NCBI GenBank assembly: GCA_051531975.1
Contig: JAOPTT010000018.1
Location: 8,147 to 72,146 of the forward strand
Source: Spirochaetaceae bacterium
Lineage (GTDB): Bacteria; Spirochaetota; Spirochaetia; DSM-2461
Reading direction: 5' to 3'
DNA length: 64,000 bases
Below the pieces are notes generated by a model. That model was not told the DNA's origin and ran no database searches. It saw nothing but the letters and a program-made list of their open reading frames with translations. The translations under genes and the position numbers were made by a program. Every line of letters begins with the position of its first letter. Positions within the stretch are counted from its first letter, which is position 1. This document shows, piece after piece, positions 21,856-63,944 of this stretch.

Positions 21856-22886
21856 TGAAAGATAAATTAATAATTACCTCTAGTCCTCAGTTTCACAATG
21901 GTGACTCTACTTTAACAGTAATGTGGAGTGTTTCTTTAGCTCTACTCCCTGCTACAATTTGGGGATTCATGATGTTTGGTATTTCATCAGTATGGACTGT
22001 TTTAATATCTATAATAGCTGCAGTATTTGCAGAGTTTATATTAAATAAATGTTACAACAAAAGTTCCTTATGGGATGGTAGTGCAATTTTAACTGGTTTA
22101 TTGATAGGTATGAATATGCCTCCTCAGATGCCAGGTTTAGCATGGATTTATGTTCCAATAGGAGCATCCTTTTTTGCTATATTTATTGTTAAGGGTGCAT
22201 TTGGTGGTTTAGGTAATAACTGGATGAATCCAGCACTAGGTGGCCGAGTATTTGTTTTTTTCTCATGGACCAAACAGATGACTGTATGGAATGTTCCAAT
22301 GCTTGATGGTGTTACAGGAGCTACTCCTTTAGGTGCAGTAAAATCTGGCCTACTTGGATATTCTGGAGATGCATCAAATCCTCTTTCTTTATTAAATGAA
22401 GTTGGAAGTAGTACTGTAAGTTATTTTGATATGTTTATTGGTAAAATTGGTGGTTCAATCGGTGAAATTTCAGCTCTTTTACTTTTAATAGGTGCAATCT
22501 TTTTAATCATTAAAAAAATAATTAGATGGGAAATATTTGCATCTTACATTGGAGTATTCATACTATTTATTTGGATATTTGATGGTACTAGATTTGGAGC
22601 AGGTCTATTTAGTGGAGATATTCTTTTTCATCTACTTTCAGGAGGTTTAATCTTAGGTGTCTTTTTTATGGCAACTGATATGGTTACTTCTCCAATAAGT
22701 GCTAAAGGTATGTTTATATATGGAGCTGGTTGTGGTTTCTTAACTTTCTTATTTAGAGTATATGGAGCTAATCCTGAAGGTGTCTCATTAGCTATAATTG
22801 TAATGAATATCATCGTTCCAATAATAAATAGGTATTCAAAACCTGCACTATTTGGACATCCCAAAAAGGAGGCAATTAATGAATAA
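21855..22886 (+). CDS. rnfD: Rnf subunit D
   Basis: FGGLG.N.MNPAL.GR, flavinylation motif DGVTGATPL, FMATDMVTSP. Confidence 0.96.
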   Translation: MKDKLIITSSPQFHNGDSTLTVMWSVSLALLPATIWGFMMFGISSVWTVLISIIAAVFAEFILNKCYNKSSLWDGSAILTGLLIGMNMPPQMPGLAWIYVPIGASFFAIFIVKGAFGGLGNNWMNPALGGRVFVFFSWTKQMTVWNVPMLDGVTGATPLGAVKSGLLGYSGDASNPLSLLNEVGSSTVSYFDMFIGKIGGSIGEISALLLLIGAIFLIIKKIIRWEIFASYIGVFILFIWIFDGTRFGAGLFSGDILFHLLSGGLILGVFFMATDMVTSPISAKGMFIYGAGCGFLTFLFRVYGANPEGVSLAIIVMNIIVPIINRYSKPALFGHPKKEAINE

Positions 22887-23436
22887 AACATTAAACATGG
22901 CATTAAAGCTTCTTATCATTTGTTCTGTAGCAGCATTTGCTTTAGGTGTTGCTAATGCATTAACAGCTCCTGAGATTCAAAGATTAGAAGATGCAGCCAA
23001 AGCTAAGGCTTTAGGTGAATTAATAGATACTGGAAGCGCAGATCCTAACAATGAAATTATCGTTGAAGAAAATGATGTAGTTTCATCTTATTATTTAATC
23101 GAAGATGGCGGACAGACAATTGGATATATTTTATATTTGAAAGCTAAAGGATATGGTGGATCCATGACTGTTATGGCTTCATATAAAACAACTGGAGAAG
23201 TTATTGGTTCTGTTCTTATGAACAATGCCGAAACTCCTGGATTTGGGAAAAAAGCTGAAAAAGCTGGATATATGGATAAATTTATTGGCAGAGGGACTAC
23301 TTCTGATCCTATTCCACTATTTGGTTATCAAGTAGAGGAGAATATCGATACTGTAACTGGTGCTACTATTACTTTTATGGGAATATCTAGCGCATTAGAA
23401 AGTGGTCGTGAATTTGTTAAAGGAGGGCTTAAATGA
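22879..23436 (+). CDS. rnfG: Rnf subunit G (FMN-binding)
   Basis: GYGG, ETPGFG, DTVTGATIT flavinylation motif. ATG 22879 after AGGAGG. Confidence 0.93.
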   Translation: MNKTLNMALKLLIICSVAAFALGVANALTAPEIQRLEDAAKAKALGELIDTGSADPNNEIIVEENDVVSSYYLIEDGGQTIGYILYLKAKGYGGSMTVMASYKTTGEVIGSVLMNNAETPGFGKKAEKAGYMDKFIGRGTTSDPIPLFGYQVEENIDTVTGATITFMGISSALESGREFVKGGLK

Positions 23437-24044
23437 AAGTATTTAGCCGAGGTATTTTTAAAGAAAATCCTGTTTTTGCTATAGCTTTAGGTCTATGTCC
23501 TGCTTTAGCTGTTACATCCATGGTATGGAATGCTATAGGTATGGGATTTGGTGTTATTTTTGTTTTAGTATGTTCAAATCTTATTATTTCATTATTAAGA
23601 AATTTTATCCCTGATGAGGTTCATATTCCAGCATATATTGTTGTTATTGCTTCATTTGTAACAATTGTAGAACTGTTAATGAAAGCTTATTTGCCATCAT
23701 TAGCTGCTAGTTTAGGAATATTTATACCACTTATTGTTGTTAACTGTGTAATTCTTGGTAGAGCTGAAGCTTTTGCAAGTAAAAATTCCCCATTAGATTC
23801 TGTATTAGATGGTCTAGGTATGGGAATTGGATTTACTGTTGCTCTTATAGTAATCGCATTTGTTAGAGAGGTATTAGGTGCCGGTCAAATAACACTTTTT
23901 GAGCAGGGAGATACTCTTGTTCGAATAACATTAGGTGGCTTAAGTGAGAATCCTATTAGAGTTTTTGCTTTTCCTGCAGGTGCTTTAATCGTAATGGGGT
24001 ATTTTAAGGCTCTATTTGATAGCATGATGAAGAGGGGTAAATAA
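23433..24044 (+). CDS. rnfE: Rnf subunit E
   Basis: ENP...LGLCPALAVT, FIPLIVVNCVILGRAEAFA. Confidence 0.96.
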   Translation: MKVFSRGIFKENPVFAIALGLCPALAVTSMVWNAIGMGFGVIFVLVCSNLIISLLRNFIPDEVHIPAYIVVIASFVTIVELLMKAYLPSLAASLGIFIPLIVVNCVILGRAEAFASKNSPLDSVLDGLGMGIGFTVALIVIAFVREVLGAGQITLFEQGDTLVRITLGGLSENPIRVFAFPAGALIVMGYFKALFDSMMKRGK

Positions 24045-24649
24045 TGGGTATTTTAACTGATGTTTTTGGTATTATTGTTGCTTATGTTCTTGTAAGTAAT
24101 GTTATTCTAACCCAATTCCTAGGGTTATGCCCATTTATTGGTGTTTCAAAAAATACAGAATCTGCTGTAGGTATGGGATTTGCCGTAACTTTTGTTATGA
24201 CTTTAGCAACTCTATTTACATGGATGTTATATAACTGGGTTTTAGTCCCAGCAGGATTAGAGTATTTAAAGGTTATTTCATTTATTTTAGTAATCGCGTC
24301 ATTAGTTCAATTTGTTGAGATGTTTGTTAAGAAAAACTCTCCTGCTTTATATAAGGCTTTAGGTATTTATCTTCCATTAATTACTACAAACTGTGCTGTT
24401 ATGGGTATAGCGTTATTGGTTGTTGAAGTTGAAAAGTTGTCCCTCTTTTATAGTGTTTTGGCTGGATTTTCAGCTGGAATTGGTTTTTTAATTGCTATAC
24501 TACTTATGTCAGCAATTAGAGAGCAACTAGAAGTAGAATGGGTTCCAAAAGGTTTAAAAGGTGTTCCAATAGCTTTTATTTCTGCTGGTCTTATGGCGAT
24601 GGCTTTTATGGCTTTTGACAAAGCACTATTAATGAATATGGTAGGTTAA
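24044..24649 (+). CDS. rnfA: Rnf subunit A
   Basis: FLGLCPFIGVS, LGIYLPLITTNCAV. Confidence 0.96.
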   Translation: MGILTDVFGIIVAYVLVSNVILTQFLGLCPFIGVSKNTESAVGMGFAVTFVMTLATLFTWMLYNWVLVPAGLEYLKVISFILVIASLVQFVEMFVKKNSPALYKALGIYLPLITTNCAVMGIALLVVEVEKLSLFYSVLAGFSAGIGFLIAILLMSAIREQLEVEWVPKGLKGVPIAFISAGLMAMAFMAFDKALLMNMVG

Positions 24650-24651
24650 GA

Positions 24652-25485
24652 ATGGGAAATATAATATTAAGTATAGTATTAGCGATAGTTTCAATTGGAC
24701 TATTAGGAGCATTTTTAGGTGCTGTATTATCTGTCGCTTCAGAAAAACTAAAAGTTGAAGAAGACTTAAGAATTAAAGATTTAGAAGCTATTCTTCCTCA
24801 GTATAACTGTGGTGCATGTGGATATTCTGGTTGTTCTGGTTATGCTGGTGCAGTAATTAACGATGGAGAACCAATAAATAAATGTACACCAGGTGGTGAC
24901 ACCCTTGTTTCACAAATCTCAGATTTATTAGGGGTTGAAGCTACAAACGTTGAAAGAATGGTAGCTCAAATTCATTGCCGTGGTGGTCAAGGTACTGCTA
25001 AAGAACAGTATAATTATGACGGTATAACTGGATGTAATGCTAAGTATCAACTTTATAGTGGTGATAAGTTATGTAAGTTTGGTTGTCTAGGCGACGGTAG
25101 TTGCATGACTGTTTGTCCTGTAGATGCAATTTACAGAGATGAAAAAAATCTAATTTGGGTAAATAAAGAGTTATGTGTAGGTTGTGAAAAATGTGTAGAT
25201 ATTTGTCCAACAAATGTAATGAAGATGATCCCATACTCGGCAGACTATATTGTTGCATGTCATTCACAAGAAAAAGGTAAAAGTGTTAAAAGTAAATGTT
25301 CAGTTGGATGTATAGCATGTAGTATTTGTGTTAGAAAATTTCCTGAAGCTGGATTTAGCGTTGACAAAAACCTTTCAAGTGTTGATTATACAATAGTAAG
25401 AGATAGATCAGATGTTTCTGCAGCTTGTCCTGTTAAATGTATAATTAAACCATATAAAGATAATAAAGGAAAAAGTAATAACTAG
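24652..25485 (+). CDS. rnfB: Rnf subunit B (polyferredoxin type)
   Basis: N-terminal TM, LPQYNCGACGYSGC...CTPGG, multiple 4Fe-4S motifs. Confidence 0.95.
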   Translation: MGNIILSIVLAIVSIGLLGAFLGAVLSVASEKLKVEEDLRIKDLEAILPQYNCGACGYSGCSGYAGAVINDGEPINKCTPGGDTLVSQISDLLGVEATNVERMVAQIHCRGGQGTAKEQYNYDGITGCNAKYQLYSGDKLCKFGCLGDGSCMTVCPVDAIYRDEKNLIWVNKELCVGCEKCVDICPTNVMKMIPYSADYIVACHSQEKGKSVKSKCSVGCIACSICVRKFPEAGFSVDKNLSSVDYTIVRDRSDVSAACPVKCIIKPYKDNKGKSNN

Positions 25486-25488
25486 ATA

Positions 25489-27495
25489 ATGAGAAAAGTT
25501 AAATTAGTATTTGGTACCTATAATAGTCAACCTCCCGAAGAAATAAATTCTACAGTTGAGGGCTATTATCAAAACGCATATAAAACTTTTCTCACTACAA
25601 TGTATAATTATCCTTCTATTAAGTTAACCTTACATTACAGTGGTGGACTCCTAGAATGGATTGAAGAAAAACATCCTGAGTTTATTTCTGTATTACAAGA
25701 GATGATAAACTCTAAGCAAGTAGAGCTTCTAAGCGGTGGTTATTATGACCCCGCTTTAACTCTTCTACCTGTCCCAGATAGAGTTGGGCAGATGGAAAAA
25801 CTCACAACTTTTATTCGTAAAAACTTTGGTAAAAAACCAAGAGGATGTTTTCTCTCAGAAAATGTCTGGGATTCATCTCTATTAACTAGTTTAAGATCTT
25901 GTGGTTTTGATTATATATTTTTAGATGATAATCAGTTTCTATCAAGTGGTATTTCTGAAAAAGATCTGTCTAAACCTGTTTTAACAGAAGATCAGGGTAA
26001 GATAATTACAGTTGTCCCTATTTGCTCAGACTTAACTGAGATGTTTTTACGTCGTCCACCAATAGAATTAATAGAATATATACAGAACCAAGAAAATATT
26101 GACGGTGTTTACACTATAATGCTGAAAGGTGAATTTTTAAAATCCACTAATATGGAATCCTCTGAAATAAAATTATGGATTGAGGAATTTAACGATCTAC
26201 TGGAAGAAAATAGTAGCTGGATTGAAACAATTACTCCCGGAAAATATGTAAAACAGATTCAAGGAACATTACAACGAGTATATTTTCCCCAGTATTCAAT
26301 TAATGGAATGCGTTATAAACCATTGCCAATTGTCAGTCAAAAAGAATTAATTAGACTAAATCGTCACTTAGAAGCACTTGGAGATGTATCACATTGGATT
26401 AATAGTGGATTTTTTAAACAATTTATTTCTAGATATCATGATTCATCACTTTTATATTCTAAAATGATATATATTAATTTACTTGTTAATCAGATAAAAG
26501 GTGATCGTTCAAGAAAAAAAACAGCTAGAGAAGAACTTTGGAGAGCACAATCTCACTATGTCTTTTGGCATGGATCTCATCTAGGAATTTATGATAAATC
26601 TTTACGAGAAAGAAGTTATAGATTTTTAATTGAAGCTGAGAAGAGTACTCGAGAAAAGGGTATATTTAAATCTGGAATAAATCATTTTGATATTAATTTA
26701 GATGGAAAAAAAGAAGCACTTTATGAAGGTGATATATATAATGCTTATATCTCCTGTAAGGGTGGCGTCTTATTTCAATTCGATTATCTCAAAAAGAAAA
26801 TGAATTTGGTTTCTACTGTCATGAGGATACAAGAATCATATCATACAGAAGAACATTCATTAGCAGGATTTGATACATATAGCCGTAAAATGTTTCATGA
26901 TCATTTTATATCAGAAGATATAACTCAAGAGGAATTTCAGCTTCAATCTTTTAAGGAGTTAGGAACTTTTATACATAATAATTATGAATATAATAGTTTG
27001 AACAGAGAAAAGAAGTCAGTTGTCTTAACATCGAAAGGAAGTGTAATGTCCTTAGGGAATCAACATGATGTAAATATAGAGAAAAAATACCACTTTAATA
27101 AGAGTAGTACCATTTTAACTTACAAAATTGAGAATTTAGATGATTTTGCGATTGATACAATTTTTGCACCTGAGTTTAATCTTTCTTTAAGTGAAATTTC
27201 AGAAGATCCTGTTGCTACATTTTCCTCAGATAAAGAACATTCAACATTAAATAAGTTTACAGCAACTAATAGTATTAATAATTTAATTATAGACGATATG
27301 GCTAATTCAATAAAAGTTAACATATCTTTCTCTACAATTGTTGATAGATTTTGGTCAGTTCCACAATATTCAAACTCACTAGAACAGGGAATTATTAAAG
27401 AAATTTATCAATTTACTAGTTTTCTTCCACAATGGAGAATAAAATTAGGTGCAAAAGAAGTGTGGTCTGTATCAATAAATATCTCACTTAGTTAG
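25489..27495 (+). CDS. GH57 alpha-amylase/4-alpha-glucanotransferase-like protein, probably catalytically incomplete
   Basis: LHYSGGLLEW, ELLSGGYYDP, PRGCFLSENVW, FLDD, WHG..GIY; the expected DDGEKFG motif reads LKGEFLK. Confidence 0.85.
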   Translation: MRKVKLVFGTYNSQPPEEINSTVEGYYQNAYKTFLTTMYNYPSIKLTLHYSGGLLEWIEEKHPEFISVLQEMINSKQVELLSGGYYDPALTLLPVPDRVGQMEKLTTFIRKNFGKKPRGCFLSENVWDSSLLTSLRSCGFDYIFLDDNQFLSSGISEKDLSKPVLTEDQGKIITVVPICSDLTEMFLRRPPIELIEYIQNQENIDGVYTIMLKGEFLKSTNMESSEIKLWIEEFNDLLEENSSWIETITPGKYVKQIQGTLQRVYFPQYSINGMRYKPLPIVSQKELIRLNRHLEALGDVSHWINSGFFKQFISRYHDSSLLYSKMIYINLLVNQIKGDRSRKKTAREELWRAQSHYVFWHGSHLGIYDKSLRERSYRFLIEAEKSTREKGIFKSGINHFDINLDGKKEALYEGDIYNAYISCKGGVLFQFDYLKKKMNLVSTVMRIQESYHTEEHSLAGFDTYSRKMFHDHFISEDITQEEFQLQSFKELGTFIHNNYEYNSLNREKKSVVLTSKGSVMSLGNQHDVNIEKKYHFNKSSTILTYKIENLDDFAIDTIFAPEFNLSLSEISEDPVATFSSDKEHSTLNKFTATNSINNLIIDDMANSIKVNISFSTIVDRFWSVPQYSNSLEQGIIKEIYQFTSFLPQWRIKLGAKEVWSVSINISLS

Positions 27496-53016: not shown

Positions 53017-53043
53017 AAAAAAAGGTGCTCGACATGAGCACCT
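53017..53043 (-). terminator. Intrinsic terminator of the fab operon
   Basis: On the minus strand AGGTGCTC-ATGTC-GAGCACCT followed by a T-run, just after the fabV stop. Confidence 0.9.
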
Positions 53044-53071
53044 CGTAATATTTTGATATTATACTATAAAC

Positions 53072-54241
53072 TTATAGAAAACTTACATCTGCATTATAGT
53101 CAACATCATCGAAACCAAAACCATGAAGTTTTAGAAAGTCAGATTTGTATGATTCAATGTCAGTTGTTTCTATTAAAGTTTCTGATGTAATTGAGTCCCA
53201 ATGTTTAGCAATTTCTGCTTGAACATCTTCTCTCATTTCCAGGTCATCTAATCTAAGTCTACCAACTTCATCAACAATAACATTAGAACCATTGTAGATT
53301 TTCTCTACAAACATTCTTTGCATTTGCTCTATGCATCCTTCATGAATACCTTTTTCTTTCATAATTTTAAATAACAATGAAATATATAAAGGAACAACAG
53401 GAATAACTGATGAACTTCTAGTTACTAATGCTTTATTTACAGAAACCCAAGCATTACCACCTAAGTCTTTAACATAATCTGTAATCTCTTTAGCTGTAGC
53501 TTCTAAATGTTCTTTAGCTTTACCAATAGTTCCCTTTCTATATACTGCCATAGTTAATTCAGGGCCAATATATGAGTATGCTAAAGTTTTAAAACATTCT
53601 TCTAGAACATCAGCTTCTTTTAAAGCTTTAATCCACAACATCCAATCTTCTCCACCCATAACTTTTACAGTTGGAGCAATTTCAGATTCCTCTGCAGGGT
53701 TAATAGATACTTCTGTTACAGTTCCTTTTTCTGGATTTACTGTTTTTGCTGTATATACTTCACCTAGTGGTTTAAGACAAGATCTGTATAATTCTCCAGT
53801 ATCGGGATCAGGACGTACTGGTGATGCTAATGAATATACAATCATATCAACTTTACCAAATAGTTCTTTAATTCTTTCAATAGCTATTTTTCTTGTTTCA
53901 TGACTAAATGCATCTGCATTAATACTTTCTGCAATTAATCCTGCAGATTTAGCTTTCTCATCAAATGCTCTGCTATTGTAAAATCCAGGTGTAGCCGGTC
54001 TTTTTTCAGTTCCCTCTTTTTCAAATGAAATGCTTAAAGTACCTGCATCTGATCCATATGCTAAAGATATTCTAGAAGATAATCCATAACCAGTTGAACC
54101 ACCTACAACTAATACTTTTTTAGCTCCGTCAAATTTAGGTTGTGATTTCACAAAATCTATCTCTGTTTGTACTGAATGTGCACACCCAACTGGGTGAGCT
54201 GTCATACATATACCATTTCTAATTCTTGGTTCTACTATCAT
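53072..54241 (-). CDS. fabV: Enoyl-ACP reductase FabV / trans-2-enoyl-CoA reductase
   Basis: AHPVGC, G.STGYGL, YSLASP.R, VMGGEDW, YSYIG......Y..GTIG.AK, HEGCIEQ. Confidence 0.95.
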   Translation of the reverse strand: MIVEPRIRNGICMTAHPVGCAHSVQTEIDFVKSQPKFDGAKKVLVVGGSTGYGLSSRISLAYGSDAGTLSISFEKEGTEKRPATPGFYNSRAFDEKAKSAGLIAESINADAFSHETRKIAIERIKELFGKVDMIVYSLASPVRPDPDTGELYRSCLKPLGEVYTAKTVNPEKGTVTEVSINPAEESEIAPTVKVMGGEDWMLWIKALKEADVLEECFKTLAYSYIGPELTMAVYRKGTIGKAKEHLEATAKEITDYVKDLGGNAWVSVNKALVTRSSSVIPVVPLYISLLFKIMKEKGIHEGCIEQMQRMFVEKIYNGSNVIVDEVGRLRLDDLEMREDVQAEIAKHWDSITSETLIETTDIESYKSDFLKLHGFGFDDVDYNADVSFL

Positions 54242-54244
54242 CTC

Positions 54245-55477
54245 TTAATCCTCAAACTGCTTAAATATAAGTGAACCATTATGTCCACCAAAACCTAATG
54301 AATCTGTTAAAGCTGCTTTAATCTCGCCTTTAACACCTTTTCCTTTCACATAGTCTAAATCACACTTTTCATCTTCTGTTTCTAAACCAATTGTAGGAGG
54401 GAAGTAGTTGTTATTGATTGCTAAGATAGAAAGAATTGCTTCTATTCCCCCAGCTGCACCAACACAGTGTCCCGTCATTCCTTTAGTAGAAGAAACTTTT
54501 AATTTATATGCATGTTCACCAAAAGCAGTTTTAATTGCGTTTGTTTCAATAGGATCATTTTTAGGTGTTGAAGTACCATGAGCGTTAATATATTGGATAT
54601 CTTCTGGCTCCATACCTGCATCTTTTAATGCAACCATCATTGATCTTGCACCACCTTCACCATCAGGAGATGGAGCAGTAATGTGTCCAGCGTCACAAGT
54701 TTGACCATAACCTGCAAGTTCAGCATAAATATGTGCACCTCTTGCTTTTGCATGTTCTAACTCTTCTAAGATTACGACACCAGCACCTTCACCTAAAGTA
54801 AATCCATCTCTATCTTTATCAAATGGTCTACAAGCTGTTTTGGGATCATTATTTGTAGTTAAAGCTTGGATTTTACAGAAACCATCAATTGCTAATAATG
54901 ATATTGGAGCTTCCATTCCACCAGTAATAACCATATCAGTTTGGCCACATCTAATAGACATTAAAGCATTACCAATTGCATCTGTTCCTGCAGCACAAGC
55001 TGTAACAACGGCATGACACGGACCTTTTATTCCATGCATAATAGCAACGTTAGCAGGGCCTTCGTTTAAAATAAGTTTTGGAATTGTCATAGGAGCTACA
55101 CTTTTATCTCTAAAAATCTGTCTATAACCATCTTCAATTACTTCAAATCCACCAATTCCATTACCCAAAATAACACCGGCTCTATAAGGGTCGAATGTTC
55201 CATCTTTTAAACCTGCATCATCCATTGCTTCTTTCGCAGCAACACATGCAAATTGTGTAAATCTGGCCATCTGTCTAGCAGCTCTTTTGTCAATAAAATC
55301 AGATGCTTTCCAATCTTTAACTTCTGCTGACACTTTTGAAGGAAATCTTTCTACATCAACTAAAGTTGTAGGCCCAATTCCACACTCTCCATTCTGAACT
55401 GCTGTCCATGTATCTTTAACGTTTTTTGCAAGTGGGTTTACTGTTCCCATTCCTGTTACAACGACTCTTCTTCTCAT
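54245..55477 (-). CDS. fabF: 3-oxoacyl-ACP synthase II
   Basis: RRVVVTG.G, TACAAG, NAHGTST, KGMTGH, SLGFGGHN. Confidence 0.97.
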   Translation of the reverse strand: MRRRVVVTGMGTVNPLAKNVKDTWTAVQNGECGIGPTTLVDVERFPSKVSAEVKDWKASDFIDKRAARQMARFTQFACVAAKEAMDDAGLKDGTFDPYRAGVILGNGIGGFEVIEDGYRQIFRDKSVAPMTIPKLILNEGPANVAIMHGIKGPCHAVVTACAAGTDAIGNALMSIRCGQTDMVITGGMEAPISLLAIDGFCKIQALTTNNDPKTACRPFDKDRDGFTLGEGAGVVILEELEHAKARGAHIYAELAGYGQTCDAGHITAPSPDGEGGARSMMVALKDAGMEPEDIQYINAHGTSTPKNDPIETNAIKTAFGEHAYKLKVSSTKGMTGHCVGAAGGIEAILSILAINNNYFPPTIGLETEDEKCDLDYVKGKGVKGEIKAALTDSLGFGGHNGSLIFKQFED

Positions 55478-55514
55478 TTTAAAATCCTTAAAATTAAGTT
55501 AATAGCTACCAACT

Positions 55515-55716
55515 AGGTAGCTTTCAGAAAAACAACCCAAAAAGGTTACCTTCGGAAAAACAACCCAAAAAGGTTACCTTCGGAAAAACAACCAAGAAAG
55601 GTTACCTTCGGAAAAACAACCAAGAAAGGTTACCTTCGGAAAAACAACCAAGAAAGGTTACCTTCGGAAAAACAACCATTCAGGTTACCTTCGGAAAAAC
55701 AACCATTCAGGTTGTT
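55515..55716. repeat. Tandem array of seven 27-28 bp units between fabG and fabF
   Basis: Core AGGTTACCTTCGGAAAAACAACC plus a variable tail (CAAAA x2, AAGAA x3, ATTC x2). Units start at 55515 (degenerate), 55543, 55571, 55599, 55627, 55655 and 55682. Confidence 0.97.
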
Positions 55717-56466
55717 TTACATATTTAATCCACCATTAATACCAAGTACCTGACCGGTCACATATTTTGACATATCAGATGCTAAAAACAGTACAGCGTT
55801 TGCAATATCGTCTGCTTCACCAAAAGATGCTAAAGGAATTGCAGCTTTATAGTTATTCTGAACTTCTTCAGAAAGTTTATCAGTCATTGGAGAAGTAATA
55901 AAACCAGGAGCAATAGCATTTACTCTAACTGATCTAGAACCAATCTCTTTAGCTAATGCTTTAGTAAGACCTAACATCCCAGCTTTAGAAGCACAGTAGT
56001 TTGTTTGACCAGGATTACCTTGAACACCTACAACAGAAGACATATTGATTATAGAACCAGTTCTTTTTTTCATCATAGATCTAGACAATTCTCTAGACAT
56101 TAAAAAAGCTGATTTTAAGTTGATGTTCATTACATCATCCCAATCTTTAGATTTCATTCTCATCATAAGGCCATCTCTAGTTATACCAGCATTATTAACT
56201 AATATATCAATTTGACCAGCATGTTCTAAAATTTCTTTACAAACAGAAACAACTTGATCTTCGTTACTAACATCTGCAGTATAACCAAAAATCTCAACAC
56301 CATTTTCTTTTGCAAGAGCTTCCATCTTAGATGCTTCTGGATCTACTCCAAGATCTAAGTTGTAAACAGTAGCTCCATTTTCGATTGCTTTTGTAGCTAT
56401 AGCTTTACCGATTCCTCTTGAACCACCAGTTACTAATAGTTTTTTTCCCTCTAATAATTTAGACAT
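55717..56466 (-). CDS. fabG: 3-oxoacyl-ACP reductase
   Basis: TGGSRGIG, NNAGITRD, NYCASKAG, NAIAPGFI. Confidence 0.96.
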   Translation of the reverse strand: MSKLLEGKKLLVTGGSRGIGKAIATKAIENGATVYNLDLGVDPEASKMEALAKENGVEIFGYTADVSNEDQVVSVCKEILEHAGQIDILVNNAGITRDGLMMRMKSKDWDDVMNINLKSAFLMSRELSRSMMKKRTGSIINMSSVVGVQGNPGQTNYCASKAGMLGLTKALAKEIGSRSVRVNAIAPGFITSPMTDKLSEEVQNNYKAAIPLASFGEADDIANAVLFLASDMSKYVTGQVLGINGGLNM

Positions 56467-57391
56467 TGCTTACTCCTTGAATATCTTCTAATGTTCCAGA
56501 TGGAACACATTTAAATTCTTTATCGATTCCAGAAAAAAGTCCAGTTAAAACTTTTCCTGGTCCACTTTCATATCCTGCAGTAAAACCTGCTGCTTTTATT
56601 TTTTCTTCTATTGCAATCCATCTTACTGGGCTTACAATTTGTTCACCACATAGTTTTTTTGCTTCATCACCAGATGAAATAACATCGCCAGTTACATTTG
56701 AATATATTGGCATTGTAGGGTCTTTAAACTCAATAGTTTTTAAGAACTCTTCAAATTGACTCTTTGCATCATCTAATAGAGGTGAGTGAAAAGGACCTGA
56801 AACAGCAAGATGTACAACTCTTCGAGCACCAGCTTCTTTTAAAAGTGGCTCAATTTCTAATAATCCAGCTTTTAAACCTGATATAACAGTCTGAGCAGGG
56901 CTATTATAGTTAGCCATGTAAACACCTTCTATACCTGAGGACTTTATTACATTTTCTATTTGCTCAGGTGTAATTCTTAATACTGCAGACATACCAGTTT
57001 CACCCTTTGTATCCTTAAGACCTGCACATACAGATGCCATAACATCCCCACGCTTCTTTACTAATTTAAAGACATCGGAAGTCGTTACTACTCCAGCAGT
57101 TACTAGTGCTGCATACTCTCCTAAAGAGAAACCAGCAACACCTTCTGGAACAATACCTTTTTCTTTCAACATTATAGTTGTTGCTAAGTTAACTAAAGTT
57201 ATTGCTACCTGAGTATTATCTGTCTGTTTTAAATCTTCAGCAGATCCGTTAAAAAGTAACTCTTTAACATCAATTCCTGTTTCCTTAGTTGCAATATCAA
57301 ACAACTCTTTTACTGAATCTGAATTATCATAAAAGTCAGTTCCCATTTTAGGGTATTGAGCACCCTGTCCTGGATATAAAAATACATTCAT
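56459..57391 (-). CDS. fabD: Malonyl-CoA:ACP transacylase
   Basis: PGQGAQ, GFSLGEY, R, SGPFHS, SPVRW, GPGKVL. Confidence 0.96.
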   Translation of the reverse strand: MNVFLYPGQGAQYPKMGTDFYDNSDSVKELFDIATKETGIDVKELLFNGSAEDLKQTDNTQVAITLVNLATTIMLKEKGIVPEGVAGFSLGEYAALVTAGVVTTSDVFKLVKKRGDVMASVCAGLKDTKGETGMSAVLRITPEQIENVIKSSGIEGVYMANYNSPAQTVISGLKAGLLEIEPLLKEAGARRVVHLAVSGPFHSPLLDDAKSQFEEFLKTIEFKDPTMPIYSNVTGDVISSGDEAKKLCGEQIVSPVRWIAIEEKIKAAGFTAGYESGPGKVLTGLFSGIDKEFKCVPSGTLEDIQGVSNV

Positions 57392-57400
57392 CTATGTCTC

Positions 57401-58384
57401 CTAATATCTAATAAGGTTTGCTGCGTATGTTAATCCAGCACCAAATCCCATTGTTATAATATAATCGCCTCTTTTGATTTCACCTTTTTCGTATATCTCA
57501 TTAAGTGCTAAACCAATTGAAGCCGCTGAAGTATTTCCATAATCTTTTAAGTTCATATAGAATTTATTTTCATCAATTTTTAATCTTCTAGCAGCAGCTC
57601 TGATTATTCGATAATTAGCTTGGTGAGGAACTATCCATCTAATATCGTCGGCTGTTAGGTCATGTCTTTCTAATAACTCTTTTAACATCTCTGTATTTAC
57701 TCTTACAGCAAAATTATAAACAGCTTGTCCATCCATAGATAAAGAAATATCTTCCTTTTTAGGTAGATAATTCTTTATAGGATTTCTAGAACCACCTACT
57801 TTTATTTTTAATGCATCTTCACCAGTACCATCAGCTTTAATAATAGAATCTATTATATCACCTTCGCCTTCTTTAGATTCAGTTAATATTAATGCACCTG
57901 CACCATCACCAAATAGACAGCAAGTATTTCTATCTTCCCAATTTACAATTGAAGAAAGTTTTTCTGCACCAATAACTACAATGTTTTTCATTTTACCGTT
58001 ATTGATTAAACCTCTTGCGACTTCGATGGCATAAGCTAGGCCTGAACAACCAGCAATTAAGTCGAAAGCACCTGAATTTACGGCACCAATTTTACCTTGA
58101 ATAATACAAGATGTTGATGGAAACCCCTGAAAGTCAGGTGTTGCTGTTGCTAAAATAATCATATCCAAGTCTTCTGGTAGAAGATCTGCTCTTTTTAAAG
58201 CTATTTCTACTGCCTTTATTGCAATGTCAGAAGTTGCAGTATTTTCATCTGCTATATGTCTTTGACAAATTCCTGTTTTACTCTGTATCCACTCATCAGA
58301 AGTATCTACCATTTTTGATAAATCATCATTAGTTAGTATTTTCTCAGGAGCCCACGCTCCAATCGAAAGTATTTTAACACCCAT
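57401..58384 (-). CDS. fabH: 3-oxoacyl-ACP synthase III
   Basis: AGCSG, FGDGAGA, PHQAN.RII, GNTSAASI, GFGAGLT. Start 58384 follows a GGAGAG RBS. Confidence 0.97.
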   Translation of the reverse strand: MGVKILSIGAWAPEKILTNDDLSKMVDTSDEWIQSKTGICQRHIADENTATSDIAIKAVEIALKRADLLPEDLDMIILATATPDFQGFPSTSCIIQGKIGAVNSGAFDLIAGCSGLAYAIEVARGLINNGKMKNIVVIGAEKLSSIVNWEDRNTCCLFGDGAGALILTESKEGEGDIIDSIIKADGTGEDALKIKVGGSRNPIKNYLPKKEDISLSMDGQAVYNFAVRVNTEMLKELLERHDLTADDIRWIVPHQANYRIIRAAARRLKIDENKFYMNLKDYGNTSAASIGLALNEIYEKGEIKRGDYIITMGFGAGLTYAANLIRY

Positions 58385-58396
58385 TTGTCTCTCCAT

Positions 58397-58602
58397 TTAA
58401 TATAAATGATGATTTATTTTTGACAATTAATCGGTTGTTGTCAATAATCAAAGCTTGAAAAAAAGCATCTTCCCCTAAAAAACAAGAATTATTTTTTTGA
58501 CATTTCTTTAAAACTGTTCAATTTCTCTTCATTTATCTTGACAATTGAGCCTTAAACGTTAAAATAATATTCATTAACTTTATGTTATATAAGGAGCAAT
58601 CT
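58397..58602. promoter_or_regulatory. Divergent promoter region between fabH and the carboxyltransferase cluster
   Basis: TTGACAA-N11-TTGTCAA (58420-58444); TTGACA at 58538 with TAAAAT 16 nt later; AAGGAG RBS at 58591. Confidence 0.55.
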
Positions 58603-60168
58603 ATGTCTACAGTAGCTGATAAACTTGAAGAGTTAAGAAAGCGAGAAGAAATAATAAAGCAGATGGGTGGAGAAGCCCGTGTGCAAAAACAACATGATAA
58701 AAAGAAACTAACTGCAAGAGAGAGAATTGATATTCTGTTTGATAAAGGAACATTTCGAGAAATTGATATGTTTGTAAAGCATAGATCAACTAATTTTAAT
58801 TTTCAAGAAGTTGAAATACCAGCAGATGGAGTTGTTACAGGACATGGTTTAATCGAAGGTAGACCTGTTTTTGCTTATTCTCAAGATTTTACAGCTCGTG
58901 GAGGTTCTTTAGGAGAGCAACACGCTGCAAAAATTGTAAAAGTACAAGACTTAGCAATGAAGTGTGGAGTTCCTATTATAGGATTAAACGATTCTGGTGG
59001 TGCCCGGGTTGAAGAAGGTATAGATGCATTAAAAGGTTATGGAGATATCTTTTTTAGAAACTCTAGAGCTTCAGGAGTAATACCACAGATTTCATGTATT
59101 ATGGGCCCTTGTGCAGGTGGGGCAGTTTATTCACCAGCTATGACCGACTTTATATTAATGGTTAAAAAAACTAGTTATATGTTTATTACAGGTCCATCGG
59201 TAATCGAGTCTGTAACTGGAGAAAAAACAACGTTCGAAGAGTTAGGTGGAGCAGTAGTTCATAACGCTAAATCTGGAAATGCACACTTCGCATGTGAAGA
59301 TGATGAAGATGCAATAGAGAGAATTAGAGAACTAGTTTCATTTTTACCAAATAATAACATGGAAGAACCAGAAGCTATATTATCGGGGGATGATCCACAT
59401 AGAGAGTGTCCTGAATTAAATAAAATTATTCCAGACGATGCTAAAACGCCATACGATATGAAAGGTGTTTTAGAAGAAGTATTAGACGATGGTTATTTCT
59501 TTGAAGTTCAGGAACTTTTTGCTGAAAATGCAATTGTTGGATATGGACGATTAGATGGTAAAGTAATTGGTATTGTTGCTAATCAGCCAATGTACCTAGC
59601 AGGTTGTTTAGATATTGATGCCTCAGATAAAATCACAAGATTTATCAGAACTTGTGATGCATATAATATACCACTTGTAACATTTGTAGATGTTCCAGGT
59701 TTTTTACCAGGAGTTAACCAAGAGCATAGTGGAATTATTAGGCATGGTGCTAAAATGTTATGGGCTTACTCTGAAGCTACAGTCCCTAAACTAACAGTTG
59801 TTACTAGAAAGAACTACGGTGGTTCATATATTGCCATGAGTTCAACTCACTTAGGTGCTGATATGGTATTTGCATGGCCATCATCAGAAATTGCAGTTAT
59901 GGGTGCAAAGGGTGCCGTTGGAATTATCTCTTCATATAGAAAAGCAATTGCAGCTGCAGATGAAGGTGACAAACAAGCAGTAATTGATGGAAAAATTGCA
60001 GAGTACGAAGAGGCTTTTAATACACCTTATATCGCCGCAGAACGTGGATATGTCGATGCAATTATTGAACCATCTACTACTAGAGCAAGATTAATTGATG
60101 CATTAAATATATTAAAAACAAAACGTGAAACATTACCTCCTAAAAAACATGGTAATATTCCACTATAG
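58603..60168 (+). CDS. Acyl-CoA carboxyltransferase (PccB/MmdA/transcarboxylase 12S family)
   Basis: LTARERI, DGVVTG.G, DSGGAR..EG, GPCAGGAVYSPA.TD, DVPGFLPG, GIIRHGAK, KKHGNIPL. ATG 58603 after AAGGAG. Confidence 0.95.
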   Translation: MSTVADKLEELRKREEIIKQMGGEARVQKQHDKKKLTARERIDILFDKGTFREIDMFVKHRSTNFNFQEVEIPADGVVTGHGLIEGRPVFAYSQDFTARGGSLGEQHAAKIVKVQDLAMKCGVPIIGLNDSGGARVEEGIDALKGYGDIFFRNSRASGVIPQISCIMGPCAGGAVYSPAMTDFILMVKKTSYMFITGPSVIESVTGEKTTFEELGGAVVHNAKSGNAHFACEDDEDAIERIRELVSFLPNNNMEEPEAILSGDDPHRECPELNKIIPDDAKTPYDMKGVLEEVLDDGYFFEVQELFAENAIVGYGRLDGKVIGIVANQPMYLAGCLDIDASDKITRFIRTCDAYNIPLVTFVDVPGFLPGVNQEHSGIIRHGAKMLWAYSEATVPKLTVVTRKNYGGSYIAMSSTHLGADMVFAWPSSEIAVMGAKGAVGIISSYRKAIAAADEGDKQAVIDGKIAEYEEAFNTPYIAAERGYVDAIIEPSTTRARLIDALNILKTKRETLPPKKHGNIPL

Positions 60169-60177
60169 GATATTTAT

Positions 60178-60336
60178 ATGGATATACATTCAAAGAGAAA
60201 GAAAGCTGCAATAATAGCTGTCTTGGCTTTTTTAGAAGAAGAGAGAAATAGAAAAACAAAAAACACCTGGGTTCATTCCGGGAGACAGATGGCCATGGGT
60301 AATAGACAGATGGCTCATACAAAGTTTTTTAAATAG
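60178..60336 (+). CDS. 52-aa acyl-CoA carboxylase epsilon-like small subunit (absent from the ORF track)
   Basis: MDIHSKRKKAAIIAVLAFLEEERNRKTKNTWVHSGRQMAMGNRQMAHTKFFK; AA..AV.A helix plus W..SGR; AGGA upstream; lies between the two carboxyltransferase genes. Confidence 0.8.
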   Translation: MDIHSKRKKAAIIAVLAFLEEERNRKTKNTWVHSGRQMAMGNRQMAHTKFFK

Positions 60337-60384
60337 GGTTTAAAAGCTGGTCATAATAAACGATCTAGTCTGGACGAACTAAGA

Positions 60385-60512
60385 AACCAAGGCTGGTTGG
60401 AACTATGTTCCTGCTCGCCTATGCAACCAAGGCTGGTCGGAACTATGTTCCTGCTCGCCTATGCAACCAAGGCTGGTCGGAACTATGTTCCTGCTCGCCT
60501 ATGCAACCAAGG
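60385..60512. repeat. 40-bp GC-richer tandem repeat (three copies plus 8 bp) with internal hairpin
   Basis: AACCAAGGCTGGTYGGAACTATGTTCCTGCTCGCCTATGC at 60385, 60425 and 60465, then AACCAAGG running into the AGGAGA RBS; GGAAC-TAT-GTTCC stem. Confidence 0.97.
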
Positions 60513-60522
60513 AGATTACATA

Positions 60523-62424
60523 ATGAAATTAGATAAACATGGTGTTTTAAATATGACACAAATGAACTATGAAGGTGATAGACCTAAAGCGATGAATCCT
60601 GTAAAAGTTCAGGATGTTTCATTTAGAGATGGACACCAATCTATATTTGCTACACGTGGTAGAACTGAAGATATGATACCAGTTGCAGAGATGATGGATG
60701 AAATAGGTTTTCATTCATTAGAAATGTGGGGTGGGGCAACATTTGATGTAATGCACCGATTTTTAAACGAAGACCCATGGTCAAGAATTAAAACTCTAAG
60801 AGAACATGCTCCTAAAACACCATTTTCAATGTTATTAAGAGGGCAAAACCTAGTTGGTTATAGAAATTATCCAGATGACGTAGTTGATACTTTTATTCAT
60901 AGAGCTGCAGAAAACGGAATTGATATCTTTAGAATGTTTGATGCTTTACACGACTTTAGAAACTTTGAAACTGCAGCTAAAGCAATTAAAGATAGCGGTA
61001 AACATTTTCAGGGAACTCTGTGTTATACATTGACGGAACTTAGATTGGGTGGAGATATCTATAATATGGACTTCTACCTTAAAAAAGCTCAGGATCTTGT
61101 AGATATGGGTGCAGATTCTATCTGTATTAAAGATATGGCTGGGCTTTTAGCTCCCTACGATGCATATAACTTAGTTAAAGCATTAAAGGAACAATCAGAT
61201 ACACCTATCCATCTACATTCCCATTTTACTTCTGGTATGGCTGATTTAACACTGTTAAAAGCTATTGAAGCTGGTGTCGATGTTGTTGATACCTGTATGG
61301 CACCATATGCTTACAGAACTTCTCATCCAGCAATTGAGCCGTTAGTTGTAACTCTAATGGGTACAGATAGGGATACTGGCTTAGATATAAAGAAGTTAGC
61401 TGCAATTAGTAAAAAAATGGAAGAGTATACTCCTAAATATATGCACTTAATGGATAATACAAAACTTGCAATTACTGATACAGACGTTATATTACATCAG
61501 ACTCCTGGTGGAATGTTATCAAATCTTGTTAATCAGTTAAAAGCTATGGGTGAAATAGATAAACTTGATAAAGTTTTTGAAATGCTGCCAATAGTACGTA
61601 AAAAACTTGGTCAAATTCCATTAGTTACTCCTACATCACAAATTGTAGGAACTCAAACTGTAAATAACGTTCTTTTTGATAAGGATGGTGAGGAATTTAC
61701 ACAAATAACAGAGCAGGTAAAAGATCTTTGTTATGGTCTATATGGTAAAACTGAACTTCCTATTGATGCGGTCGTACAAAAGAAAGCATTAAAAGGATAT
61801 CCAAGAGGCGAAGAACCTATTACATGTAGACCTGCAGATATTTTAGAGCCAGAAATGGAAACAGTAAAAGAAGCATTTGCTGAAGTTACTAAAGATCTAG
61901 ATGACGAAGTTCTATGTGCTTTATATCCAATAACTGGTAAAAGATTCCTTAAATGGAAACATGGGATAGAAGATGCTCCTGATGAAGTTAGACCTAAAAC
62001 TTTAGAAGAAGTAGAAATGGAAAGGGAATTAATTGCGAAAGCTGTAAGTGGTGAACTAAAAGAAAAAGGAGATGCGGAAGCACCTTCTAATGCCAGATCT
62101 TTTGATGTTTATGTTGAAGGCGAGCATTTTAGTGTCCAAGTCGCAGTTCCTAGAACTGGTGGTAGCGCAAATAAATCAGTTAAAAAGAAAAAGGAATCTG
62201 TAGTAGCAGATCCAAAGTCTATAGTTGCACCAATACCTGGTATGATTGTTGAATTTAAAAAACAAGTTGGAGACGAAGTAAAGAAGGGTGATGTTGTTGT
62301 TGTATTAGAAGCAATGAAGATGATGAATAACCTTGAAGCTGCAATTGATGGAGTTATTAAAGCAATTCACTTTGATACGGCTGATAGTGTAGCTAAAGGT
62401 GATGTACTAGTTACGATAGATTGA
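60523..62424 (+). CDS. Pyruvate/oxaloacetate carboxyltransferase (5S/OadA/PycB family) fused to a C-terminal biotinyl domain
   Basis: RDGHQS..ATR, WGGATFD, LRGQN, IKDMAG, HSH, PGGM.SN, PLVTPTSQIVG, EAMKM. Start moved to ATG 60523 (AGGAGA RBS). Confidence 0.94.
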   Translation: MKLDKHGVLNMTQMNYEGDRPKAMNPVKVQDVSFRDGHQSIFATRGRTEDMIPVAEMMDEIGFHSLEMWGGATFDVMHRFLNEDPWSRIKTLREHAPKTPFSMLLRGQNLVGYRNYPDDVVDTFIHRAAENGIDIFRMFDALHDFRNFETAAKAIKDSGKHFQGTLCYTLTELRLGGDIYNMDFYLKKAQDLVDMGADSICIKDMAGLLAPYDAYNLVKALKEQSDTPIHLHSHFTSGMADLTLLKAIEAGVDVVDTCMAPYAYRTSHPAIEPLVVTLMGTDRDTGLDIKKLAAISKKMEEYTPKYMHLMDNTKLAITDTDVILHQTPGGMLSNLVNQLKAMGEIDKLDKVFEMLPIVRKKLGQIPLVTPTSQIVGTQTVNNVLFDKDGEEFTQITEQVKDLCYGLYGKTELPIDAVVQKKALKGYPRGEEPITCRPADILEPEMETVKEAFAEVTKDLDDEVLCALYPITGKRFLKWKHGIEDAPDEVRPKTLEEVEMERELIAKAVSGELKEKGDAEAPSNARSFDVYVEGEHFSVQVAVPRTGGSANKSVKKKKESVVADPKSIVAPIPGMIVEFKKQVGDEVKKGDVVVVLEAMKMMNNLEAAIDGVIKAIHFDTADSVAKGDVLVTID

Positions 62425-62451: not shown

Positions 62452-62485
62452 AAAAAGAGTCTTCCTATTTAGGGAGGCTTTTTTT
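62452..62485 (+). terminator. Intrinsic terminator after the carboxyltransferase cluster
   Basis: GAGTCTTCCT-ATTT-AGGGAGGCTT stem (with G-U pairs) followed by a T-run. Confidence 0.85.
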
Positions 62486-62549: not shown

Positions 62550-63944
62550 ATGAAGAAACTAATTTTACTAACTATAATAATTTTGTTATTGACTAATTCA
62601 TGTTCTCTATTAGAAGAGGATAATTCAGCTGATCTATCTTTATCATTATCTATTAATAGCCGGAGTATAGGTGTTGAGGATATTGATCGTATTGTATTAA
62701 CTGTTACAGGTGCGGGCATGAGTCCTATTGTTAAAGAAACTACATCTAATACATTAAGGTTATCTGTTGAATATGGTTCGGATCGAAGGTTTGAGATTGA
62801 TCTTACTTTATGTGATGGCCGTGAATATAATGGCAGTACAACTATAGATATTAATGGATCAACTAGGTCTGTACCAATGACATTGAATTACGCTTTGGAA
62901 TTCTCCTTTGAATTTGATATTATTTCTGCAAATAGTCCTGTAACTGTAAATAAAAGTGGTAAGGATATTGTTATACAAGACGAGCAACTCTATTTAGGGG
63001 TTTGGAAGTCAGGAGATGAAAACCAATCAGGAGTATATATTTATGACATTACCAATAGAGGGAATCCAATATACGACACTACTGCAGTATTGTGGGCTGA
63101 TGCCCTTAGTATTGATATAAATAATAATCATCTTTATGCTGCAAACGGAGCTCGTAATCTTAGAACATTTAATATAAATACACCTTCCAATCCTATATTG
63201 CTTGATGAGAATGATACTGACGATGGAAGTTTTCCTGAAACTATGGGACTTTCTTCGGACTCTAGCACCATTAAAACCATTTCTCAGGATAATAGCGTCT
63301 ATCTTCTCTCTTACGCAGATAATTATATTGCCGGAGAGTTTCAGGCGGGAGCTAGCTTTATCCAGTTTGATGTAACGGAGCCTAATAATCCGGATAAATC
63401 AATTTATTATAGTGTTGGTGAAGCAATGCCTAAATCTTTTTGTCTAGATGATTCATACGCATATGTTGTTGGAAGACATTTGGATATATTTGATATAAAC
63501 AATCAAGTAGGAGCTAGAGAGAGTCATACTACATTATTAGATAGTAGTGAAACTGCATATGATGTTGTTAAAAGTGGGGATTATCTATATATCGTTACAT
63601 CTAATAAATTAATTGTGGTTGATGTCTCTAATCCACTAGAATCTGAAGAAGTTTATGCTTTCAATTTAGATGGAAATGCTATATCAGATGGTTGTCCAAG
63701 TTCAGGAAAAGCTTTAGTGAAGTCAGGTAACTATCTCTATATTGCAGATGGTAGTGCTGGTATTGTTATTTTAGATGTTACAGATCCTTTGGTTCCTACC
63801 CTGAAAAATAGTATAGTAGCAGAGACAAATCAATATTTTAGAGACATCTATTTTTATGAAAGTAAACTTTATACAGTTGTTGAAAAAACATCAGAGATGA
63901 ATTCAATATCATATTTAAACTCATACAATTTAGAGTTACAATAA
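62550..63944 (+). CDS. Lipoprotein with N-terminal Ig-like region and LVIVD beta-propeller repeats
   Basis: Lipobox-like LLLTNSC; repeats such as GDYLYIV...LIVVDVSNP and GNYLYIADGSAGIVILDVTDP; TTGACA-17-TTAAAT upstream. Confidence 0.85.
   Translation: MKKLILLTIIILLLTNSCSLLEEDNSADLSLSLSINSRSIGVEDIDRIVLTVTGAGMSPIVKETTSNTLRLSVEYGSDRRFEIDLTLCDGREYNGSTTIDINGSTRSVPMTLNYALEFSFEFDIISANSPVTVNKSGKDIVIQDEQLYLGVWKSGDENQSGVYIYDITNRGNPIYDTTAVLWADALSIDINNNHLYAANGARNLRTFNINTPSNPILLDENDTDDGSFPETMGLSSDSSTIKTISQDNSVYLLSYADNYIAGEFQAGASFIQFDVTEPNNPDKSIYYSVGEAMPKSFCLDDSYAYVVGRHLDIFDINNQVGARESHTTLLDSSETAYDVVKSGDYLYIVTSNKLIVVDVSNPLESEEVYAFNLDGNAISDGCPSSGKALVKSGNYLYIADGSAGIVILDVTDPLVPTLKNSIVAETNQYFRDIYFYESKLYTVVEKTSEMNSISYLNSYNLELQ

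Follow-up and report, generated by a model that had tools for sequence, protein, structure and literature searches.

A candidate transcarboxylase route to malonyl-CoA encoded head-to-head with the fatty-acid synthesis operon of a spirochaete

In bacteria, acetyl-CoA carboxylase (ACC), an antibiotic target, is regarded as catalyzing the committed step of fatty-acid synthesis universally and at the cost of ATP. Among the systems that handle the same chemistry differently, the transcarboxylase of Propionibacterium freudenreichii subsp. shermanii (12S/5S/1.3S, EC 2.1.3.1) is a soluble assembly of two carboxyltransferases (CTs) and a biotin carrier with no ATP-using subunit, and it also accepts acetyl-CoA, as a side activity (PMC8085960). 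In Entamoeba, a transcarboxylase makes malonyl-CoA from oxaloacetate physiologically (PMC8136499, citing Clark 2007 and Barbosa-Cabrera 2012). Neither the enzyme family nor the side reaction with acetyl-CoA nor the eukaryotic case is new. Here, we describe a three-gene unit of the Propionibacterium type that lies head-to-head with a fab operon for type II fatty-acid synthase (FAS II), and that may supply this synthase with malonyl-CoA, in a 64,000-nucleotide stretch of the genome of a marine Spirochaetaceae bacterium (contig JAOPTT010000018.1 of assembly GCA_051531975.1; the whole stretch is hereafter called the window).

The window unit shares with the Propionibacterium enzyme its two CTs, its biotin carrier and the lack of an ATP-using subunit, but it differs in several respects. 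Its carrier is fused to the 5S-type protein, where Propionibacterium has a free 1.3S subunit; it includes an extra conserved small protein of ~52–65 aa; its 5S part is nearer to OadA (2nx9) and PycB (5ks8), at 459 bits each, than to the 5S subunit itself (1rqb, 383 bits); and it stands against a fab operon in a genome without methylmalonyl-CoA mutase or epimerase, leaving the classical substrate without a source. With the Entamoeba enzyme it would share the proposed reaction, in an anaerobe that lacks conventional malonyl-CoA synthesis (PMC8136499). The likeness is one of reaction; Entamoeba is a eukaryote, whereas the window has three separate bacterial genes that would feed a type II synthase. 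Jordan et al. in 2003 reportedly found the Entamoeba enzyme to be a single fused polypeptide that feeds fatty-acid elongation. The Na+-translocating decarboxylases (MmdABCDE, OadGAB) draw on the same CT and biotin-carrier families, yet the window cluster has neither a beta nor a gamma membrane subunit. Finally, AccABCD yields the product proposed here and occupies the same place upstream of FabD; in contrast, the window has no biotin carboxylase and no split AccA/AccD, and the carboxyl donor would be oxaloacetate instead of bicarbonate and ATP.

In the full-text literature searched, which leaves subscription journals largely outside, no bacterial transcarboxylase that supplies malonyl-CoA to FAS II has been proposed or shown. 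A term search of a 2026 review of alternative malonyl-CoA pathways returned transcarboxylase zero times (PMC12799670), and a 2011 survey, which reports that the spirochaete and Thermotogales genomes analysed lack ACC, does not state where their malonyl-CoA originates (PMC3199775). The locus offers a concrete, testable answer to the question of the malonyl-CoA source in a genome in which no other route was found. Should the answer hold, it would show energy-limited anaerobes saving one ATP per C2 unit, it would extend the Entamoeba solution to bacteria, and it would provide metabolic engineers with a compact, ATP-free malonyl-CoA module.

The three-gene unit and the divergent fab operon

The locus consists of two divergent units, fabH-D-G-F-V on the minus strand and the three-gene unit on the plus strand, with a 206-bp spacer between them (Table 1). 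A first-pass annotation, made from the DNA letters alone, had listed this fab gene set in this order, a divergent promoter region of ~200 bp and a terminator closing the three-gene unit. Every fab gene scores above its NCBIfam cut-off, promoter-like sites occur on both strands of the spacer, and a terminator-like hairpin follows the third gene, in agreement with that description. Its account of the unit, an acyl-CoA CT, a 52-aa protein and a keto-acid CT joined to an EAMKM biotin carrier, together making up the architecture of a transcarboxylase, is likewise borne out by domain profiles: a 12S-type CT, 5S-type domains and an AMKM biotin carrier are present, and a biotin carboxylase is not. Within the three genes, we found no ATP-grasp or biotin carboxylase domain, no AccA/AccD and no membrane subunit (OadB beta, PF03977, or gamma, PF04277), just as had been claimed for the cluster; a single OadB is encoded elsewhere in the genome.

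The best family match of the 12S-type CT is the mmdA model TIGR01117 (836.9 bits, under the cut-off of 998.8). In comparison with known structures, its score is 685 bits with the PccB structure 1xnw and 617 bits with that of the 12S subunit, 1on3, and the accA and accD models match it weakly. The 5S-type protein carries a Biotin_lipoyl domain with the EAMKM motif at its C-terminus, no free 1.3S subunit being present, and reaches 468 bits with the NCBIfam 5S model NF008984, under that model's cut-off of 827.

A small open reading frame (ORF) of ~50–65 aa is found between the two large genes in 61 related loci. The alignment of 40 of these small proteins has near-invariant K6, A10, A11, W31, M40, R43 and Q47, and these residues indicate that the 52-aa gene of the window is real. 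Similar to the epsilon subunit of actinobacterial acyl-CoA carboxylases (PF13822), the protein is encoded directly after the CT. However, the window copy does not match PF13822, and the likeness of its relatives, weak in 7 of the 40 aligned proteins with a best E-value of 0.0023, is too slight for membership. The window protein has no Pfam match at all, and its longest hydrophobic stretch spans 10 residues. Complex prediction of the 52-aa protein with the CT gave no support for an interaction, a result that says nothing on binding.

Could the two units be controlled together? The four best sigma-70-like matches of the scanned 10-kb region all fall in the 206-bp spacer, two on each strand; over the 10-kb region as a whole, promoter-like sites are not enriched (40 observed, 41.4 expected from shuffles). 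Between the window and its closest relative, a locus in a Spirochaetales assembly designated L013, the inverted-repeat arms and three TTGACA boxes of the spacer are kept, while the sequence between the arms differs. This is the pattern that would be expected of a shared operator, and the spacer may contain one.

Malonyl-CoA supply in the source genome

Contig 18, which contains the window, belongs to a 5.46-Mb assembly (G000) in 29 contigs with a completeness of 98.5% and a contamination of 2.9%. The first-pass annotation had supposed that the unit may supply malonyl-CoA in place of ACC, and the genomic searches it named came out favorable or neutral, which supports the idea. Biotin carboxylase (PF02785) has zero matches in the genome, with a control that matched in 13 of 14 named genomes, and the sole PF01039 match is the window CT, so that AccA and AccD are absent; no accA, accC or accD gene is present, and neither a biotin carboxylase nor a pyruvate carboxylase (pycA) was found. 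Methylmalonyl-CoA mutase also has zero matches in the genome. The best epimerase candidate, at 28.8 bits, stays below the cut-off of 115, and all five mutase-bearing comparison genomes reach 147–162 bits. The source genome holds a consumer of malonyl-CoA without a conventional producer, and it encodes no CoA carboxyltransferase besides the window enzyme. BirA is encoded in the genome as well.

From this architecture and these genome-wide absences, we infer what the enzyme acts on, which way it runs and that it is coupled to fatty-acid synthesis: a soluble transcarboxylase, recruited from a propionate-type enzyme, probably converts oxaloacetate and acetyl-CoA to pyruvate and malonyl-CoA for FAS II. 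That malonyl-CoA is the product, whichever the donor, seems likely. In the mechanism that we propose, oxaloacetate would pass its carboxyl group to the tethered biotin at the 5S domain and leave as pyruvate, and the swinging biotin domain would bring the carboxyl group to the 12S subunit, where acetyl-CoA would become malonyl-CoA. The malonyl group would then be loaded onto acyl carrier protein by FabD, whose gene lies on the other side of the shared promoter region. Neither ATP nor the activation of bicarbonate would be required. The transfer itself would be near equilibrium, the loss of CO2 in the condensations catalyzed by FabH and FabF would pull it toward malonyl-CoA, and the enzyme would stand in for the ACC that is absent from the genome.

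An OadB or MmdB partner that would explain the window genes had been named beforehand as a possible objection. One OadB is indeed encoded, on contig 7, but its operon, oadG-oadA-oadB, includes an OadA that bears biotin itself and is only ~27% identical to the 5S-type protein of the window. This operon is self-contained, and its OadB has no need of the window genes as partners. The operon (L089:6163-9488, minus strand) adjoins a Ca2+/Na+ antiporter gene.

With a complete oadGAB operon at hand, acetyl-CoA might instead be carboxylated at the expense of a Na+ gradient: a reversed OadB would load CO2 onto the biotin of OadA or of the 5S/biotin carboxyl carrier protein (BCCP) fusion, and the 12S subunit would make malonyl-CoA. 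Such a route would fit the failure to find a conventional oxaloacetate-forming carboxylase and the presence in the window of an Rnf operon, a possible ion pump (20527–25485), and other ACC-less Spirochaetota hold their sole CT in CT-OadG-BCCP-OadB operons without a mutase. Dimroth and Hilpert (1984) are said to have reversed Oad and Mmd pumps, carboxylating pyruvate and acetyl-CoA. However, the complete 5S domain would be superfluous, as a bare biotin carrier would do, as it does in Mmd-type operons. Moreover, OadB is encoded on another contig together with its own OadA and OadG, and it was found within 10 kb of the operon in none of 80 reference-genome loci fetched with the window CT as query. 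We consider this alternative improbable.

The same OadB, and the equal scores of the third protein against OadA and PycB, could also be reconciled with a decarboxylase role, in which both CTs would feed carboxybiotin to OadB so that decarboxylation of malonyl-CoA or oxaloacetate pumps Na+. A pump of this kind would require malonyl-CoA, for which no source is seen besides the window enzyme, and its OadB is already provided with an OadA and an OadG of its own. The 52-aa protein does not qualify as the membrane subunit either, with its hydrophobic stretch of only 10 residues, and OAD_gamma (PF04277) matches none of the 40 aligned small proteins. A decarboxylase role is therefore very unlikely in our judgment.

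Relatives of the operon and the weighing of its function

Where else does this type of operon occur? A 5S/BCCP gene lies directly downstream of the CT gene in 71 of the 80 reference-genome loci, with at least 57% identity in 69 of them, and some of the remaining contigs end at that point. The 71 operon loci belong mainly to Bacteroidota (Marinilabiliales-like, Flavobacteriaceae) and Cloacimonadota, at 60–76% identity, and a mutase gene is found within 10 kb in five of the 80. The fabV-F-G-D-H layout against the operon was seen in a single reference locus, L013, whose CT is 90% identical to that of the window. The operon proteins of L013 are 81–91% identical to their window counterparts and its head-to-head layout is kept; its genome has no match to biotin carboxylase or to the mutase. 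The linkage of fab genes and transcarboxylase, whose conservation across Spirochaetota the annotation had proposed to test, is retained in L013 and was not seen in the other Spirochaetota checked. In a neighbor-joining tree of 93 CTs, calculated without support values, the window and L013 are placed beside a large clade of soluble operons, and the other spirochaete CTs, 50–58% identical, are set apart from them; we draw no donor and no direction of transfer from this tree.

A contrast set of the 16 genomes that hold the closest operons shows what normally accompanies them. The mutase is present in all 14 non-spirochaete genomes (Bacteroidota, Cloacimonadota and unclassified) and in neither of the two Spirochaetota (those of L013 and L085), FabD is present in all 16, and the epimerase in all five non-spirochaete genomes tested for it. 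Biotin carboxylase is present in nine of the 16 and is absent from the genome of L013 and from all six Cloacimonadota. The methylmalonyl pathway is the usual companion of this type of operon; the window lineage has lost that pathway, lacks ACC and carries the operon in a new position, against the fab genes. Since the operon type is otherwise found in mutase-bearing genomes, it looks here to have been recruited from the methylmalonyl pathway. The six Cloacimonadota genomes, those behind loci L071, L074, L077, L087, L019 and L023, combine the operon with a mutase and FabD, and biotin carboxylase was not found in them; in these genomes, the transcarboxylase may have a double role, in propionate metabolism and in providing malonyl-CoA.

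These associations also suggest a more conventional explanation, namely an ordinary methylmalonyl-CoA:pyruvate transcarboxylase in a mutase-free metabolism of propionyl- or methylmalonyl-CoA, for instance in amino-acid breakdown, with its position next to the fab genes a coincidence. The co-occurrence with a mutase in every non-spirochaete genome of the contrast set would agree with this, as would a CT whose best family match is mmdA and that bears no signature of a substrate shift. Without a mutase in either the source genome or that of L013, and without an epimerase, methylmalonyl-CoA would nonetheless be a dead end. In addition, the head-to-head layout and its control elements are kept in L013, and if the window enzyme were assigned elsewhere, the FAS II genes would be left with no visible source of malonyl-CoA. 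On balance, this explanation seems unlikely to us.

Several points weigh against a role of the window enzyme in supplying malonyl-CoA to FAS II, the first of which concern the substrate. The CT is 70–76% identical to CTs of methylmalonyl-pathway genomes, it has no residue signature that separates the use of acetyl-CoA from that of propionyl-CoA, and its 15 lineage-specific substitutions are mostly conservative, none of them placeable in the binding pocket. It aligns best with the PccB chains of S. coelicolor, in two printed alignments that differ only at position 422 (Ile or Val), where the window has Ile. Residue 422 governs whether PccB accepts acetyl-CoA: the wild type has Asp, and hydrophobic replacements permit the use of this substrate. 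Isoleucine at the equivalent position was considered as a marker of acetyl-CoA use and dropped, as each of the 79 related loci with sequence at this site has one of Ile, Leu and Val. The same residues also occur in Veillonellaceae and Selenomonadaceae genes that adjoin a mutase, and the residue is probably permissive and not diagnostic.

Further points concern the linkage, the donor and the assembly. Fab linkage was not found in the other 79 reference-genome loci, in 80 metagenome loci or in the other Spirochaetota checked; the metagenome scan for nearer relatives gave a best identity of 74%, with fab genes within 7 kb in none of its 80 loci. Pyruvate carboxylase, phosphoenolpyruvate (PEP) carboxylase and both the ATP- and the GTP-dependent PEP carboxykinase were not found in the source genome, so that none of these enzymes accounts for the supply of oxaloacetate. 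Malic enzyme is present, and OadGAB, reversed on a Na+ gradient, could be a source of oxaloacetate. Moreover, absences from an assembly of 29 contigs are not proof.

The completeness of the synthase is a further concern. Profile searches and tblastn found neither FabZ nor FabA in the source genome, and the fab set would need another dehydratase, a HadAB-like pair, as a substitute in order to be complete. By profile search, FabZ/FabA matches in 39 of 43 Spirochaetota genomes, a selected set of 42 picked for a full-length 12S-type match (mostly their sole match) plus the source genome, whose counts are descriptive and not a test. Two adjacent hotdog proteins are encoded on contig 6 at ~289361–290225 (L114:8361-9225), one of 146 aa with PF13452 and one of 137 aa with MaoC, PF01575. 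Their domains resemble those of the mycobacterial HadAB dehydratase. This HadAB-like pair is a candidate substitute for FabZ and may complete FAS II.

Expression was considered in a marine metatranscriptome of the same sample, in which contigs at least 99% identical to the window fall on fabV/F, fabG, fabD, fabH, the CT gene (58858–59148) and the 5S gene (60597–60842). Such contigs are present in 14 of 30 bins; an empty bin carries no information, and the comparison had no silent region as a control. The RNA contigs are a weak hint that both operons are expressed; possible carry-over of DNA into the RNA library is a last point on the negative side.

With FabZ/FabA missing, the fab genes might conceivably fail to make fatty acids de novo, and the transcarboxylase would then be an acquired operon of little current function. 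All ORFs are intact, though, the operon is maintained in L013 at the identities given above, the HadAB-like pair could supply the dehydratase and RNA library contigs cover both operons. We regard this reading as very unlikely, and we continue to favor a transcarboxylase that provides FAS II with malonyl-CoA.

How far does this extend beyond the window lineage? PF01039 has a match in 276 of 301 sampled Spirochaetota genomes. Among the 43 selected genomes, biotin carboxylase is absent in 33 and the mutase in 30, and FabD matches in 42 (21 of them over the cut-off). The context of the CT varies between Spirochaetota families: CT-OadG-BCCP-OadB plus a separate OadA-OadB in one, CT-ankyrin-BCCP-OadB in another, and a lone CT with oadGAB elsewhere in a third; one family has the window-like layout of CT, small protein and 5S/BCCP, yet a biotin carboxylase is present. 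When fab genes and the CT share a contig, they are far from each other: five genomes have them ~100 kb to 2 Mb apart, and a sixth has 13 kb between them. Physical linkage to fab is special to the window lineage, and the combination of FAS II with a 12S-type CT and no ACC is widespread. The loci L096 (in genome G214) and L099 (in G010) have Mmd-type operons (CT-OadG-BCCP-OadB and CT-ankyrin-BCCP-OadB, respectively) in genomes with FabD and FabZ and with no mutase or biotin carboxylase; the pump of these genomes may run on malonyl-CoA, possibly in reverse.

A broader proposal would be that a dedicated malonyl-CoA:pyruvate transcarboxylase has replaced ACC as the committed step of FAS II, co-regulated with fab through a shared operator, and that the window is the clearest case of a wider, unrecognized habit among anaerobes (several Spirochaetota families and Cloacimonadota), in which a 12S-type CT makes malonyl-CoA and is fed by oxaloacetate or a sodium gradient instead of ATP. 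We see the prospects of this proposal as evenly balanced.

Feature coordinates and minor observations

Table 1. Features of the fab–transcarboxylase locus, in window coordinates.
Feature	Position	Strand	Evidence or remark
Terminator-like hairpin ending fab operon	53022..53044	-	9-pair stem then T run, just past FabV stop
fabV, enoyl-ACP reductase	53072..54241	-	NF043048 575.7 bits (cut-off 400)
fabF, ketoacyl-ACP synthase II	54245..55477	-	TIGR03150 558.9 bits (cut-off 493.75)
28-bp x 6.6 tandem repeat, fills fabF-fabG spacer	55523..55705	.	single copy in genome
fabG, 3-oxoacyl-ACP reductase	55717..56466	-	TIGR01830 329.5 bits (cut-off 297.75)
fabD, malonyl-CoA:ACP transacylase, malonyl-CoA consumer	56459..57391	-	TIGR00128 262.2 bits (cut-off 260.9)
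fabH, ketoacyl-ACP synthase III	57401..58396	-	NF006829 404.1 bits (cut-off 249)
Divergent control region	58397..58602	.	promoter-like sites on both strands; inverted repeat, arms 58413-58426 and 58438-58451
12S/MmdA-type acyl-CoA CT, 521 aa	58603..60168	+	PF01039 643 bits, positions 1-493/493
Conserved 52-aa small subunit	60178..60336	+	same-position ORF in 61 related loci
40-bp x 3.2 tandem repeat between small gene and third gene	60385..60512	.	not in L013
5S/OadA/PycB-type oxaloacetate-pyruvate CT fused to biotin carrier, 633 aa	60523..62424	+	HMGL-like + PYC_OADA + Biotin_lipoyl, EAMKM
Terminator-like hairpin ending three-gene unit	62461..62477	+	hairpin scan

The start codons in Table 1 are the most likely ones. 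For the CT, ATG 58603 follows AAGGAG and is preferred to 58582, and homologues align from residues 1–4 of the ATG 58603 form. For the third gene, ATG 60523 follows AGGAG and is preferred to TTG 60397, which would give a protein of 675 aa, because the 42 upstream codons traverse the tandem repeat, profiles match only from residue 64–71 of the long form and L013 has no repeat. Related copies of the 40-bp repeat unit occur on contigs 14, 5, 3, 10, 7 and 4 of the source genome, and one DNA contig of the source sample has an extra A after 60484.

An acpP gene in the gap between fabF and fabG was ruled out, the gap being the 28-bp tandem repeat. The genome does have acpP, split over the end of contig 16 and the start of contig 15, between rpmF and rnc; the ends of these contigs overlap by ~22 bases, which makes them neighbors (rpmF-acpP-rnc).

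Directly past the transcarboxylase terminator, a 464-aa LVIVD-repeat protein is encoded (62550–63944, plus strand); it was not seen next to the operon of L013, where the sequence of the locus stops ~230 bp past the 5S gene. Two long ORFs elsewhere in the window have no Pfam match at an E-value of 1e-5 or better (2370–6464, minus strand, 1364 aa; 8867–11533, plus strand, 888 aa). The Rnf-type operon is on the plus strand, contains RnfC, D, G, E, A and B domains and marks an anaerobe with ferredoxin-driven ion pumping. It is followed by a GH57 glucanotransferase-like gene at 25489–27495.

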